64,000 nucleotides of DNA from Promethearchaeota archaeon (GTDB lineage: Archaea; Asgardarchaeota; Lokiarchaeia; Sigyniarchaeales; SOKP01). The DNA is taken from the NCBI GenBank assembly GCA_019057795.1, contig JAHLWS010000026.1:61461-125460 (forward strand), in the 5' to 3' direction. The position numbers and the translations under genes were made by a program. Of the stretch, positions 20,386 to 26,180 are shown one piece after another. Below the pieces are notes generated by a model, which searched no databases, had not been told where the DNA came from, and saw nothing but the letters and a program-made list of their open reading frames with translations. Each line of letters opens with the position of its first letter. Position 1 is the first letter of the stretch.

Positions 20386-20913
20386 ATGTCAAGTTTTAAA
20401 CTAAAAGTATTGCTAACTGGAGCTGCCGCTGTCGGTAAAACTAGTCTGGTTCAAAGATTTATCAAACAACGTTTTGCGGCTAACTATAAGCTCACCGTTG
20501 GAGTAGACATCCTGACCAAAGATGTTGAGTTCTCGCAAGGGGAGGTGGCAACCCTTTCCATATGGGACATTGGAGGACAACAAAGGTTTGAGTTCATTCG
20601 TTCGACGTTTTATAAAGGCGCCGCAGGAGCTTTGTTAGTTTTTGACTTAACAAGAGAACAAACCTACATTGAAGTAAGAAAGTGGCTAACAGAAATCCGT
20701 CAGTTTGCTGGTCAAGATATACCGTTTGTACTAATAGGAAACAAATACGACTTACTGGAGGATGTTGGTGAAGTTATCGATCGGGACGAGGCGAGAGCTT
20801 TAGCTGAAGGCGAAGGTAGCATATATATTGAAACCTCAGCTAAAACAGGTATTAACGTAGATGATGCTTTTACTGAACTTACTCGCAGAATTATCAAGTC
20901 TAGAACTCAATAA
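20386..20913 (+). CDS. Rab-like small GTPase
   Basis: GAAAVGKT, YKLTVGVD, WDIGGQ, RF..IR..FY.GA, NKYD, ETSAK; no C-terminal prenylation cysteine. Confidence 0.95.
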   Translation: MSSFKLKVLLTGAAAVGKTSLVQRFIKQRFAANYKLTVGVDILTKDVEFSQGEVATLSIWDIGGQQRFEFIRSTFYKGAAGALLVFDLTREQTYIEVRKWLTEIRQFAGQDIPFVLIGNKYDLLEDVGEVIDRDEARALAEGEGSIYIETSAKTGINVDDAFTELTRRIIKSRTQ

Positions 20914-21060: not shown

Positions 21061-22494
21061 TTAGTTTTTATTGTGTTTTTCAGTTTCAAAATCTTCACAT
21101 AAATCATCGTGAATAACTTTAATCGCATCCATGAGATCTCGTCTCTCAATTACCAACGAAAGATTCAATTCCTCGGTACTCTGAGTCAAAGCTTTTACGT
21201 GGATATTCTTCTTTTCTAAAGCTTGAAAAATTATGGCTTTCGTTGTGTTTTCTAATATTTTAAATCCTGTTATATTGATGATTGCTACCTCTTCAAATTT
21301 GATTTCGAAAAAATCAGAAAAATATCCCGAACTCTTTAAAGCTTCCACAGCTTTTTGAGCTTCATTTCCTTTTACAATAAAAGAAGTGCTAATCTCAGAA
21401 GCACTTTGAGCAACTAAAGATACGCTAATTCTGTTTTTACTCATAACTTTAAAGATCTTTGCTAGAACTCCTGGAACATCAACTAAACTTCCTGAAATAA
21501 CGGTTATAATTACAGCATCTTCTACTGTGGAAATTCCTTTGATTTCGTTTTTATCTGTGAGTACCGAGATTTTTGTAAAGTTGAATTTTTGCAATGGCTT
21601 GTTAAAATTTCTAAGCTCTAAGGGTATGTTCTTTTTTTCGATCGCTTCAAGACATTTAGGATGGAGAATTTTCGCCCCAAAATTCGCGATGTGCTTAGCT
21701 TCGTTGTAATCTAAATTTTTAATAAGAGTTGATTGTGGAACGTACTTAGGGTTAATAGCTAGTAATCCGTCAACGTCTTTCCATAGAATAACTGTTATAT
21801 TTTTATCTACCCCCACTTCGTGTATCGATCGGGCTAAAATCGTTGCTGTGTAATCTGAGCCACCTCTTCCTAAGGTAGTAGTATAACCTATTTTATTTCT
21901 TCCGATAAATCCCGTTATACAAATAATTACGTCTTTTTTAGGGTTTTCTAAGAGAGGTATTATCATTCTCCGCGTTCGCTCGTTCGTTAATTTGTAAAAA
22001 GGATATGCGTTATTAAACTCGTCGTTTGTTATTATTAGGTTATTTGCTGGAATGTACACTGATTCTAATCCCTTACTCAATATGTACTGGTTTAAAATGT
22101 ATGTTGACAATATTTCACCAAAACTTAAGATTAAATCTTGATAGTATGGCTCTAACCCAAATTCTTTTATATCAGCAAATGCATCTTCCAAATCGCTAAG
22201 CTTTTCATCAACCCAATCTTTAGCTTTTACATAATGCTCTGTGTCTTCGTTAAAAATTTGCTCAATCATATTGAAATGTTTTTTCTCTAAGATTGCTATG
22301 TTGTCTTCGATAATTGTAGAATTATTTACATTTTGGGCAGTACTTAATAGTAGTTCTGTTATCCCACTAAACGCCGAAGCTACAACTATTTTTTTTTCGT
22401 CTTTATATATTTTTAAAATTTTGATAATTTTCTTAAAAGCACTTCTATCTACTAAGCAACTTCCACCGAACTTCATAATAACTATAGGGGTCAA
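21061..22494 (-). CDS. lysC: aspartate kinase
   Basis: MKFGGS, VVASA, SFGE..S, TTLGRGGSDYTA, WKDVDG, GAKILHP, two C-terminal ACT domains. Confidence 0.93.
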   Translation of the reverse strand: MTPIVIMKFGGSCLVDRSAFKKIIKILKIYKDEKKIVVASAFSGITELLLSTAQNVNNSTIIEDNIAILEKKHFNMIEQIFNEDTEHYVKAKDWVDEKLSDLEDAFADIKEFGLEPYYQDLILSFGEILSTYILNQYILSKGLESVYIPANNLIITNDEFNNAYPFYKLTNERTRRMIIPLLENPKKDVIICITGFIGRNKIGYTTTLGRGGSDYTATILARSIHEVGVDKNITVILWKDVDGLLAINPKYVPQSTLIKNLDYNEAKHIANFGAKILHPKCLEAIEKKNIPLELRNFNKPLQKFNFTKISVLTDKNEIKGISTVEDAVIITVISGSLVDVPGVLAKIFKVMSKNRISVSLVAQSASEISTSFIVKGNEAQKAVEALKSSGYFSDFFEIKFEEVAIINITGFKILENTTKAIIFQALEKKNIHVKALTQSTEELNLSLVIERRDLMDAIKVIHDDLCEDFETEKHNKN

Positions 22495-22627: not shown

Positions 22628-24760
22628 TTAGTTCTTTAAAAGTTGTTCCAATTCTTTAATCTGTTGGTTAAGATCTGTTTTAATCACTTCCATTTTACTC
22701 TTCTTTTCTTCAAGCTCTTTGCTTGTAATTTCCCCTGTCAGCTCTTTCATGTCGAAGTCCAACGACATCTTAGAAATATTAGCTTTTTTAATTTTTAAGT
22801 CCATCAAAGAATTTTCTAAAGTGGCCCTTTGTTCCATAGAAATCCTGGTAGAAGTAGCTTGACCTGTAGGCTCCGCTATTTTTTGCGTCGTTGTAGGGGG
22901 TTCGTTGCTTATTATTTTTGAAGGCGTAACTGCTACAACTTTAGCTTTAGACTTTATAAGTTCTATTGGACTAACCGGAGTAGGAGGTTGCGTAATCTCT
23001 TTAGGGACCTCAAATACTTTTGAAGGTGGAACCTCACTTTTTTTTGGAATTATTGGTGCATCAATTTTTTTAGTCGGAGTAAAACTAGCAGGTGTTTTAA
23101 CTTTTATTAATTTTGTGGGCGTAACTGGAAGGGATGTCTTAAATTCTGTTGGATTAGTAACTTGGGCAAAAGGTGATGTTTTTAATTTGTTTTTAGCGTC
23201 CTTAGGAACAATCATCACTGTTTTCGGACGGGGTTTCACCATAAAATCTTCTGGGTTAAAGACTAATTCTACTTTTTCCTGTAGTCTTTTAGGCTTGATC
23301 AACGCTTCAAGTTTAGAAGTTTCTTTTTCTTCTTCGATTTTTTTAATATCCGCTTTTTCAAGTTTTGGTTCTTCCGTTTTTGGAATTTTTGGTGGTGCTG
23401 ACTTTTTGGGATGTGGAGGAACAATGTTTTTTTCAATTAACTTTGGCTTTTTTAATGCTCCAGGTGCCGGTGGTATAGACGGTTTTTTAAGACTTATTTC
23501 ATTTTCTGATGCTTCTGGTGCTTTAGGAGGTCCATGAGGAGGTGGCGGCGGAGGAACAGCTACTGATACTTTTGGTTTTTCTTGTTCTTCAGGTTTTGGG
23601 GGTTCAGGAATAATTGGCTTTTTTACCTTACTTTTTTCGACGGGTTTAGTAGGCTCTTCTGTGGATACTGGCGATTCAACGATTTTTGGTTCTTCAGGAG
23701 GCCCCGGTTGAGGAGCGCTAAGTTTTTGAAGCATACTTTTAATTTTTTGAGCTTTTTCATAAAATTCTTTGCCTAGAGAATCATCTCCTAGCTCTATGCA
23801 TAAATCGCTAATTTTATCGAAAATTGTAGCAGCTTTACCAAACTCCGCGTTCTCCAATGCTAATGCCGCTTCTTCCATATAAGTATCCCTTTCCAATAGT
23901 GGTTTCAATAGAGGTGAAACCTCAGCGCTCATTTCTAATACATCTGCAATAATAGTTATCATCTTATCCCGATTGTTGGAATCATTAGCAATCATAGAGT
24001 ACGTTTTTAAGCCTAAGATTTTTTCAATTTGTTCTGGTTTCATTGCATCGTCCAGGTCTTGTTTATTACCAATGATAGATGTATGTGCTTGAGGAGCTTG
24101 TTCTTTTATTAGTTCCAAGAAGAATTTACTCTTTTCTACGTTTTCCAAAGTGGAATCTGTGATTAATAAAACAGCATCGCTTCCTTTAATAAAATTGTTC
24201 CATAAATAACTAAATTGCTCTTGTCCAGCAAAATCCCACAAATGAAAATGTAATTTCCCTATTTTAATCGTAGCTATGTCTCCTGTAATGGTCGGGATGT
24301 GTTGCATGGGGATTTCTTCTGCTTTAATCAATCGAGTTATCGTAGTTTTTCCAACGCCAGAAAATCCTATGAGCGATATTTTTGGTCTTAAATTTCTATG
24401 AATTGCATCTATTGTTGGATCGAATATTTCAAAGGTTTTCTCGTCAATTTTATGATCTAATAGGTCTTCAAAAAGATTTAAAAATTCTTTTTTGCATTTA
24501 ATTAGTTCTTTTTTAATATTCTCGAAATTATCCGTTAAACCAGTAACAAATAGAAACATTAATTCAGAATCTTTTTCTGTAATGTAGGATATTCGGTATT
24601 TGTAATAATCGTGATACTCAACGCTTTTACCTCTTTTAGCGAAAGCGTCTTTCATCAAATCTGCTGCTAAAGAGGTGAAAACATCATCCTTAAGGGCTTT
24701 TCCAAAATGCCGATAGTATAACAATTTACCACGATTGTAAATATAAACTTGTCTTAAGAT
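22628..24760 (-). CDS. longin-like domain + Arf-like small GTPase + helical hairpin + proline-rich linker + C-terminal coiled coil
   Basis: GFSGVGKT, PTI, WDFAGQ, NKQD; N-terminal longin-type beta-hairpin; PPPPPP tract. The track starts at TTG 24724, but the frame is open to ATC 24760/ATT 24763 behind a GGTGA SD. Confidence 0.85.
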   Translation of the reverse strand: MLRQVYIYNRGKLLYYRHFGKALKDDVFTSLAADLMKDAFAKRGKSVEYHDYYKYRISYITEKDSELMFLFVTGLTDNFENIKKELIKCKKEFLNLFEDLLDHKIDEKTFEIFDPTIDAIHRNLRPKISLIGFSGVGKTTITRLIKAEEIPMQHIPTITGDIATIKIGKLHFHLWDFAGQEQFSYLWNNFIKGSDAVLLITDSTLENVEKSKFFLELIKEQAPQAHTSIIGNKQDLDDAMKPEQIEKILGLKTYSMIANDSNNRDKMITIIADVLEMSAEVSPLLKPLLERDTYMEEAALALENAEFGKAATIFDKISDLCIELGDDSLGKEFYEKAQKIKSMLQKLSAPQPGPPEEPKIVESPVSTEEPTKPVEKSKVKKPIIPEPPKPEEQEKPKVSVAVPPPPPPHGPPKAPEASENEISLKKPSIPPAPGALKKPKLIEKNIVPPHPKKSAPPKIPKTEEPKLEKADIKKIEEEKETSKLEALIKPKRLQEKVELVFNPEDFMVKPRPKTVMIVPKDAKNKLKTSPFAQVTNPTEFKTSLPVTPTKLIKVKTPASFTPTKKIDAPIIPKKSEVPPSKVFEVPKEITQPPTPVSPIELIKSKAKVVAVTPSKIISNEPPTTTQKIAEPTGQATSTRISMEQRATLENSLMDLKIKKANISKMSLDFDMKELTGEITSKELEEKKSKMEVIKTDLNQQIKELEQLLKN

Positions 24761-24808
24761 AATATCTCACCTAATCCCTAGTAAATTAATTACTTATACA
24801 TAAAAACT

Positions 24809-25303
24809 TCATAATTTTGTTACATATTTTACAAGATCTTTAATTATCGAATATTTCTTATCTTTTTCTTTCTTTTTCTTAAAAGTTTCTTCAATTTTTT
24901 GAATTTCTTTAGAAAAATCAAAAACTGAAAAATCGTATATTTCTTGATCCTTAGACTTCTCGCTCAATTTCTTCAAAAAGACGCTAATACTAGGCATGTA
25001 TTTTCCCAAATTCATATTTAATCCTAACTTTGATATCAAAATCAATTCGTTACTGAATGTAAAAAGGTAGTTATACTCTTGAGCCTCTAAAGCAAAGGAA
25101 TTTATTTTAGTTAAATTCAATTCGTCAGCTATATCTTTAGAATTAGCGATTACCGAAAGAATTTTATGAGGAATAATTTTTCCTTTAGCAAATTCTTTTA
25201 TAGTTGATCCTAATACAATTCCATATTTGCTTGCAATAGCACATTCAGAATTTAGCTCCGTTTTCAATTGTGAGATGATTTCGTCGTAATTAATTTGTCT
25301 CAT
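24809..25303 (-). CDS. roadblock/LC7 (profilin-like fold) domain protein
   Basis: Helix-CAIASKYGIVLGS-helix-three beta strands-helix pattern; directly upstream of the GTPase on the same strand. Confidence 0.6.
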   Translation of the reverse strand: MRQINYDEIISQLKTELNSECAIASKYGIVLGSTIKEFAKGKIIPHKILSVIANSKDIADELNLTKINSFALEAQEYNYLFTFSNELILISKLGLNMNLGKYMPSISVFLKKLSEKSKDQEIYDFSVFDFSKEIQKIEETFKKKKEKDKKYSIIKDLVKYVTKL

Positions 25304-25385: not shown

Positions 25386-26180
25386 ATGAAATTGAAAATA
25401 TATAAATATCATTTTATAAAAAAAGAATCAGATATTACTTTAATCTCAGAGTCGAAAAGTGCAATTTTAAAAGCAAAAGAAGGGTTTTTTCGTCATCGCA
25501 AAATTTTAGAAAAATATGTTACACAGAATAACAAATTTCTTACGTCTTTTTCGCCAATTAGAATCAAATCTGAATTTGAAATCGTTAATTTAATGAGTGA
25601 AGCATCCATTTTGTGTGAGGTAGGTCCGATGGCAGCAGTAGCAGGGGCATTTGCTGATATAATGATGGCTCTAATGAAAGAGGAAGACGACCCAAATATT
25701 ATTCCTGCAAAAATTGCTTTAGTTGAAAACGGTGGCGAAATCGTCGTAGACTCCGAAAAAGAGATGAAAATCGCGCTATTTGCTGGATATAACGAATTAA
25801 ATTTGAATATTGGCTTCTTAATTGAAAATAAAGATTGTCCAATAGGTATAGGAACAAGCTCCGCCACAATAGGTCACGCAATAAGCCTAGGACAAGCAGA
25901 CGCAGTGACCGTATTTGGTAAAAATGCGACGCTGGCAGATGGAGCTGCAACTAGAATCGCTAATTTAGTTAAAGGAGCGGACGTTGAAAAATCTATAAAA
26001 AACGCTTTAGACGCCGTCGAAGATATTGAAGGCGTTTTTGGTGCTTTTATATCCCGAGATAATAAAATTGGTCAAGTAGGTAAACTGCCAAAGATCTTTA
26101 AAATTGAGGGCGATAAAAATATAGTTTTAAAAAATAAATTTGAGGGGCTATTTCCAGGAAAATTTGAAATCTTTAAATAA
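25386..26180 (+). CDS. UPF0280 / ApbE-like family protein
   Basis: VGPMAAVAGA, VENGGEI, TSSATIGHAISLGQADAVTV, ADGAAT. Confidence 0.92.
   Translation: MKLKIYKYHFIKKESDITLISESKSAILKAKEGFFRHRKILEKYVTQNNKFLTSFSPIRIKSEFEIVNLMSEASILCEVGPMAAVAGAFADIMMALMKEEDDPNIIPAKIALVENGGEIVVDSEKEMKIALFAGYNELNLNIGFLIENKDCPIGIGTSSATIGHAISLGQADAVTVFGKNATLADGAATRIANLVKGADVEKSIKNALDAVEDIEGVFGAFISRDNKIGQVGKLPKIFKIEGDKNIVLKNKFEGLFPGKFEIFK

Follow-up and report, generated by a model that had tools for sequence, protein, structure and literature searches.

Gene content of the locus

We analysed a stretch of 64,000 nucleotides (nt) from the genome of a Promethearchaeota archaeon (the window; contig JAHLWS010000026.1, positions 61,461 to 125,460), in which two adjacent genes encode a roadblock-type protein of 164 amino acids (aa) and, directly downstream, a multidomain protein of ~710 aa that contains an Arf-like small GTPase domain. 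These genes form a real, conserved and lineage-restricted pair, a probable operon that joins a roadblock gene to a longin-Arf-like GTPase gene, in one Lokiarchaeia-type order of Asgard archaea. Both lie on the minus strand, 48 nt apart, and their parts are as follows (all coordinates are positions within the window):

24809..25303, minus strand: roadblock-type gene (open reading frame, ORF, of 164 aa)
24764..24808, minus strand: intergenic spacer, holding a Shine-Dalgarno motif GGTGA at 24771-24767
24763-24761, minus strand: alternative ATT start of the GTPase gene
24758..24760, minus strand: probable near-cognate ATC start of the GTPase gene, aligned with Met1 of distant orthologs
22628..24760, minus strand: gene of the longin/Arf-like GTPase/helical/linker/hairpin protein, ~710 aa, stop codon included
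24389..24757, minus strand: predicted longin-like domain, model residues 3-125 (AlphaFold topology)
23927..24388, minus strand: Arf-like small GTPase domain (Pfam Arf and G motifs)
23717..23905, minus strand: three-helix (TPR-like) domain, which holds the MEEAALALENAEFGKAATIF hairpin (AlphaFold helices)
22856..23716, minus strand: low-complexity linker rich in Pro, Lys, Glu and Thr (composition)
22631..22855, minus strand: conserved C-terminal helix-Gly-helix domain of ~70 aa (alignment of 18 orthologs)

Two metatranscriptome runs of one study yielded RNA contigs from 88-92%-identical relatives that cover both genes; one of them spans the entire spacer up to the GTPase start codon, DNA carry-over being possible. 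A 1377-nt metatranscriptome contig from a ~92%-identical relative, corresponding to window positions 23259-24632 (the N-terminal module and part of the linker), had a mean word depth of 886, far above the other metatranscriptome contigs at the locus; such depth is a poor measure of expression.

Conservation of the gene pair

In 49 of 50 loci the GTPase gene was found directly downstream of the roadblock gene and in the same orientation. Of 20 diverse loci, 19 show this arrangement, most gaps being 15-168 nt and one 318 nt, and the GTPase start lies downstream in all 30 close-relative loci. A first-pass annotation, made from the window sequence without database searches, had named conserved gene order as a check on the association of the two genes, and the order holds also in distant relatives with different neighbours, where lysC, the gene matching NCBIfam PRK04334, a membrane protein gene and a Rab-like gene all drop out of the neighbourhood. 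At these distant loci the roadblock protein is 28-36% identical and the N-terminal module of the GTPase 60-64%. The pair also occurs in three closed single-contig genomes of 4.3-6.0 Mb.

We assessed the phyletic range of both proteins across 400 genomes of the phylum, in which f1, f2 and f3 denote three families of one order. The roadblock gene is present as a single copy in 124 of the 400 genomes, all from this order (f1, 112/134; f2, 1/1; f3, 10/14), and was detected in none of the other listed families. The C-terminal hairpin of the GTPase protein occurs in 110/134 genomes of f1, 1/1 of f2 and 10/14 of f3, with three weak partial matches only elsewhere; the roadblock gene and the hairpin thus share a phyletic pattern. 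Where one was found without the other, a contig ended nearby in the cases checked, apart from two genomes (G274 and G188) that are treated below.

Adjacency could reflect shared regulation only, the two genes being co-transcribed without direct partnership and the roadblock protein serving other GTPases or another complex. Cross-talk is possible in a genome with 18 Robl_LC7 matches and nine proteins that combine a longin-type N-terminal domain with a GTPase (including the window copy); G188, moreover, retains the GTPase next to a decayed roadblock gene, and in MK-D1 the GTPase genes generally do not lie in operons with roadblock or longin genes (PMC10933270). We nonetheless consider co-transcription alone unlikely, since adjacency is kept in 49/50 loci while all other neighbours change, and both genes are single copy with the same narrow phyletic range. 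No roadblock-like ORF lies within 1.5 kb of any of the other eight longin-GTPase paralogs of the genome.

Small GTPases number in the dozens in Asgard archaea, as do roadblock and longin proteins, and the matches between regulators and GTPases are largely unassigned. The pair is a useful exception because genome layout otherwise rarely helps in matching regulators (PMC10933270): it provides a rare candidate for a matched GTPase and regulator that is single copy, order-wide and almost always adjacent.

Start codon of the GTPase gene

Counted from its first TTG, the GTPase ORF covers 22628-24724 and 698 aa. Upstream of this TTG another 14 codons are open before an in-frame TGA, and in the window sequence the added codons encode the peptide D-I-ILRQVYIYNRGK. 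The peptide ILRQVYIY at the extended N-terminus is kept in all orthologs, homologs start with M(I)ILRQVYIY, and residue 2 of distant relatives aligns with residue 3 of the extended protein. At the 50 loci, the codon aligned with Met1 is ATT (19), ATA (13), ATC (6), ATG (9), GTG (2) or ACG (1), that is, a near-cognate ATC, ATT or ATA in 38/50. Based on the upstream frame, the conserved peptide and this codon alignment, we took the GTPase gene as 22628-24760, with an ATC start 12 codons upstream of the first TTG. In family f1 the GTPase start is preceded, at a distance of 5-6 nt, by GGTGA or a one-base variant of it. In most loci, including the window, the TGA within GGTGA lies in frame as a stop codon two codons ahead of the start.

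Starts of the ATH type (ATC, ATT or ATA) look common across the genome of the window (G000). Sites were counted genome-wide where GGTGA was followed by a 5-8-nt spacer, with an in-frame stop no more than 4 codons before the site and 200 or more open codons after it. The codons at such sites were ATG (24), ATT (13), ATA (11), TTG (10) and ATC (2), compared with AAA (6), TTT (4) and AAT (3). Several of the ATH sites open typical protein N-termini, such as IKVLLFGPGGAGKT and IKKKVAILGVG.

The roadblock-type protein

The 164-aa protein is laid out as a roadblock core (approximately residues 1-115) followed by a conserved C-terminal helical extension of ~50 aa with the pattern FSxFDFSKEI...KYSIIKDLVKYI. 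An alignment of 27 orthologs, with identity down to 27%, was compared by hhalign with 13 Robl_LC7 paralogs of the same genome and gave a probability of 94.6% (E 6.7e-8, 102 columns); a shallow alignment of the protein reached only 52.6% against the Robl_LC7 paralogs. Searching the PDB with the ortholog profile (hmmsearch) retrieved 7yh1_D (E 2.6e-4) and 9jue_D (E 0.0029), both of which are named Roadblock/LC7. Judged from sequence profiles, this is a divergent roadblock-domain protein, in agreement with the first-pass annotation, which had called the upstream gene roadblock-like. Its fold would then be the alpha-beta-beta-alpha-beta-beta-beta(-alpha) one of the Roadblock/LC7 family.

The N-terminal module of the GTPase protein

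An AlphaFold model of residues 1-358, built on an alignment of 41 relatives, reached a predicted local distance difference test (pLDDT) of 89.9 and a predicted template modelling score (pTM) of 0.81. Its first elements are strands 3-10 and 13-19, helix 26-40, strands 49-53, 56-63 and 68-75 and helices 80-101 and 108-125. This order over residues 3-125 (beta-beta-alpha-beta-beta-beta-alpha-alpha) is the longin topology, with block-mean pLDDT of 83-96 over residues 1-125, and the N-terminal 125 aa are accordingly, in the model, a longin-like domain. Support from sequence is weak but consistent. The domain has a weak profile match to AP-2 sigma (E 0.025) that is in register (1-104 against 1-102), Fuz_longin_1 is matched by 2 of 41 relatives (E 0.0056), and the Atlas feature neighbours of the domain belong to SRP-alpha_N and Fuz_longin_1 clusters (scores 0.82-0.86), which serve as leads only.

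The G domain spans residues 128-275 of the model. Pfam PF00025 (Arf) matches residues 113-242 (126-255 in the extended numbering) at 1.5e-21 and 78.8 bits, compared with a cut-off of 22.3, and it is matched by 41/41 relatives; Roc, Ras and Gtr1_RagA (25.6 bits) score below Arf on this domain. A complete G1-G4 set is present (G1 GFSGVGKTT, switch I PTITG, G3 WDFAGQE, G4 NKQD) with the catalytic Gln of DxxGQ kept, and the motif columns are invariant or nearly so among the 41 relatives, which span 27-70% identity. The best Foldseek matches of the G domain are Arl1, Arf6 and the Asgard protein GerdArfR1, with target-normalised template modelling (TM) scores of ~0.8. In the model no amphipathic membrane-anchor helix precedes the G domain, and the longin-like 125 aa stand there instead.

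Three helices follow the G domain (287-304, 308-324 and 328-349; pLDDT ~87-97). They give a weak TPR_8 match (E 0.013) and are kept as a domain in relatives down to ~30% identity. Proteins of 271 aa from a Thorarchaeota cluster can be superposed on residues 2-278 with a match-normalised TM of 0.91 and a root-mean-square deviation of 1.9 over 266 residues, and the longin and G-domain core is therefore common across Asgard phyla. The order of parts given in the first-pass annotation was borne out by Pfam, the AlphaFold model and the ortholog alignment, as longin-like, Arf-like GTPase, helical, linker and C-terminal helical.

The linker and the C-terminal hairpin

Between the three-helix domain and the C-terminus, the ~290-aa tail of the window copy is composed of 18% K, 15% P and 11% E, and includes one PPPPPP run and 17 PxxP motifs. 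The first-pass annotation had read this region as a polyproline effector arm of a signalling-to-cytoskeleton switch, in which the arm recruits profilin-actin or partners of the SH3, WW or EVH1 type and the nearby Rab-like gene is part of the module. The composition of the window copy fits such an arm, and Asgard archaea do have actin and profilins, with some Heimdall and Thor profilins binding polyproline weakly (PMC8410842). Among 19 orthologs, however, proline content varies from 7 to 23%, the longest proline run is mostly 2-3 residues, PxxP motifs fall to 0-2 in several, and linker length ranges from ~105 to 418 aa. As content, runs, PxxP counts and length are all unconserved, the linker is a spacer rather than a conserved motif array, and the effector arm is not supported by the comparison. 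The N-terminal module and the C-terminal hairpin, on either side of it, are conserved. In addition, Loki profilin-1 and -2 are reported not to bind polyproline (PMC8410842), which, with the unconserved linker motifs, disfavours the proposed link to profilin and the cytoskeleton. Within the fetched flanks, a neighbourhood that includes the Rab-like gene was found in some near relatives only (4/20 loci) and in no locus of the distant family, and membership of that gene in the module is not supported. We regard a cytoskeletal switch of this kind as very unlikely, and a connection of GTPase signalling to actin through this pair is not supported on present evidence.

Beyond the linker, the hairpin has the pattern LxDLKIKxANI...DMxELTGEIT.EEL..K, with its Gly invariant in the 18 orthologs, and the domain occurs once in the genome. 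It is a candidate oligomerisation or docking module. Known families were also considered for it. A CdvA-like identity (PF18822) was rejected: 8/18 orthologs match below threshold (best 5.8e-5, 23 bits against a cut-off of 30), the window copy does not match, and a genome-wide PF18822 search misses the GTPase gene, with sub-threshold matches in 10/14 control genomes. Matches to SHOCT, GvpG and Lip_prot_lig_C were below threshold and inconsistent among orthologs, and these were likewise set aside.

Neighbouring genes and related loci

The genes around the pair in the window are as follows:

20386-20913: Rab-like GTPase gene (Pfam Ras 6.9e-49)
21061-22494: aspartokinase gene with ACT domains, between the Rab-like gene and the pair
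25386-26180: gene of the NCBIfam PRK04334 group (6.6e-65, below cut-off, annotated hypothetical), divergent, upstream of the roadblock gene

The PRK04334 gene occupies the same position in 11/20 loci and is co-directional in two f3 loci.

In eight loci of family f3 (including L049:2927-4802, L052 and L053), two further genes flank the pair, encoding a coiled-coil protein of 340-450 aa with a winged-helix-like C-terminus and a 125-aa alpha/beta protein. They come in two arrangements, divergent and upstream in six loci, and co-directional and downstream of the GTPase gene in two, L052 and L053 (order: roadblock, GTPase, coiled-coil, 125-aa). No Pfam family matches either protein. A comparison of the 125-aa protein with longin domains did not show homology (hhalign 6%, no PDB match).

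These loci raise the question of a four-part system, in which the pair works with the 125-aa and coiled-coil proteins and the latter is the docking site of the hairpin. Besides the recurrence of both genes beside the pair in two different arrangements, they adjoin each other in the genome of the window, on another contig (G000:C77:167913-169406), and the N-terminal domain of a Gtr1/RagA-type GTPase paralog resembles the 125-aa protein. The linkage is absent in family f1, including the window, the f3 loci come from related genomes in which synteny may be inherited and not selected, and no longin homology was detected for the 125-aa protein; on balance we find a four-part system improbable.

The Gtr1/RagA-type paralog belongs to a separate arrangement, seen on contig C46 of the genome (L090:484-2951), in which two longin-type GTPase genes stand in tandem on one strand. 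On C46 a 343-aa Arf-like paralog is followed by a 460-aa protein with a Gtr1/RagA G domain (1.3e-23). This tandem may be a Rag-like heterodimer pair.

Proposed function of the gene pair

The observations comprise the domain layout, the homologies, the strict pairing of the genes, the phyletic range that they share and the lack of conserved proline motifs. Building on them by analogy, we lean modestly towards a reading of the pair as a matched small-GTPase switch with its roadblock-type partner. The roadblock protein would bind the N-terminal module of the GTPase as its dedicated partner, either as a pseudo-dimer with the cis longin domain or as a roadblock homodimer, and once bound would set the nucleotide state of the G domain, as a GTPase-activating protein (GAP) or a guanine nucleotide exchange factor (GEF). 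The variable low-complexity linker would act as a flexible tether, and the conserved hairpin would oligomerise the switch or dock it onto another structure. The partner role is drawn from analogy with every characterised platform of the roadblock or longin type (MglB-MglA, Ragulator-Rag, TRAPP core-Ypt1, Mon1-Ccz1-Ypt7 and SRX-SRbeta). Small GTPases bind to roadblock and longin domains, which form dimeric platforms with GAP or GEF activity (PMC10933270).

How the two proteins would fit together can be described in two ways. In one, which we think less likely than not, the cis longin domain pairs with the roadblock protein in a mixed pseudo-dimer that carries and regulates its own Arf-like G domain, is tethered by an entropic linker to the docking hairpin, and in some lineages is wired to the coiled-coil/winged-helix and small alpha/beta proteins. 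In the other, a roadblock homodimer would act as a GAP on the G domain in a 2:1 complex of the MglB type, the cis longin domain being an intramolecular SRX-like effector or autoinhibitor and not a dimer partner. In the bacterial mglBA operon, too, the roadblock gene precedes the GTPase gene, which suits the homodimer. The pTM of the model suggests that the longin domain is already packed in a fixed way on the G domain, and the SRPRB family is touched by 18/41 family members (best E 1.7e-5). Solved Asgard roadblock proteins are, moreover, homodimers (PMC10933270). The G domain is nevertheless Arf-like with a normal DxxGQ, not of the MglA type, and the data do not separate the homodimeric arrangement from a roadblock-longin heterodimer; we hold the MglB-type arrangement to be rather doubtful. 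When the N-terminal module and the roadblock protein were modelled as a complex, the score was 0.00, with controls not run, which speaks neither for nor against binding.

Several observations weigh against a matched switch and its roadblock partner. The 164-aa protein has no Pfam roadblock match (PF03259, none at E 1 or better), a genome-wide PF03259 search matched 18 other places and not this gene, and its AlphaFold model, built on a shallow alignment of 28 close homologs, has a pLDDT of 38 and is unusable. Fold searches of the 358-residue GTPase model (Foldseek against the PDB and VIA-align, wide) were filled wholly by the G domain and therefore say nothing for or against a particular fold of the longin or three-helix domains. 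No fused form of the roadblock domain was found among longer proteins, which is weak evidence, and no RNA contig from close relatives bridges both genes by at least 31 nt per side. That the two proteins bind each other, in which direction regulation runs and what the C-terminal hairpin does are points that we infer only.

The remaining points of this kind come from the two genomes in which the pair is disrupted. The pair is split in G274, with a 64-residue longin remnant beside the roadblock gene, and in G188 (L083:3146-5566, C1) an intact GTPase gene has only the 3' third of a roadblock gene upstream. The AT-rich non-coding DNA upstream of the G188 GTPase gene resembles only roadblock residues 106-159 (E 1e-4), an apparent decay of the roadblock gene in this 2.27-Mb genome. 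From these two exceptions it follows that the GTPase can apparently persist without its partner. As to the layout in G274, all that follows the roadblock gene (L058:1721-2464, C96) is a 72-aa ORF that matches positions 1-63 of the N-terminal module, and a full-length GTPase gene lies on another contig (L084:500-2596, C40), the outcome either of a rearrangement that left a 5' remnant or of a mixed assembly.

Comparison with known systems

The first-pass annotation had presented the locus as its best candidate for an undescribed system. This was overstated: earlier work describes longin-GTPase fusions from Asgard archaea (Tran et al. 2024, PMC10933270; Liu et al. 2020 preprint, 10.1101/2020.10.19.343400) and also the pairing of roadblock proteins with GTPases; a different predicted operon, combining roadblock, Rab and DENN, has been described in Asgard archaea (10.1101/2020.10.19.343400), and Asgard roadblock structures are available (PMC10933270). 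Of the present operon, no description was found in the literature searched. Among Asgard Rag-like and Arf-like longin-GTPase fusions, the protein shares an N-terminal longin domain fused to an Arf-annotated small G domain, and only this ortholog group has an upstream roadblock gene, a unique hairpin and a long variable linker.

The overall layout of the GTPase protein invites comparison with FtsZ, which consists of a globular GTPase core, a variable disordered linker and a conserved C-terminal docking peptide. Both combine a conserved GTPase core with a freely varying linker and a conserved C-terminal element; there is no homology, and the likeness is an analogy of layout only.

In gene order the nearest counterpart is MglB-MglA of Myxococcus and relatives, in whose mglBA operon the roadblock gene comes first and the GTPase gene second. 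Here too a small GTPase gene immediately follows a co-directional roadblock gene, and a roadblock platform would be expected to set the nucleotide state. The G domain differs in being Arf-like with a canonical DxxGQ/DFAGQ G3, not of the MglA type. The GTPase adds a cis longin domain, a helical domain, a long linker and a C-terminal hairpin, and the roadblock protein has its conserved 50-aa C-terminal extension and falls below the Pfam roadblock threshold.

The Rag/Ragulator system (Gtr1/Gtr2, Ego/LAMTOR) likewise combines small GTPases with platforms of the roadblock superfamily, partly in cis and partly in trans. Rag proteins, however, carry a C-terminal roadblock domain, whereas the cis domain here is N-terminal with a longin topology and the G domain is followed by three helices (287-349) and then the linker, with no C-terminal roadblock domain after it. 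In the eukaryotic SRP receptor, the SRX domain of SRalpha is a longin-fold domain paired with an Arf-like GTPase, SRbeta, whose chains match the present G domain at Z 16.8-17.4. The two are separate chains, with a membrane anchor in SRbeta and an SRP-type NG domain in SRalpha, neither of which is present here, and the window copy of the GTPase has no SRPRB match at E 0.1 or better. If the mixed pseudo-dimer does form, the roadblock-longin unit would be a compact archaeal counterpart of the eukaryotic Ragulator-Rag and SRX-SRbeta assemblies.

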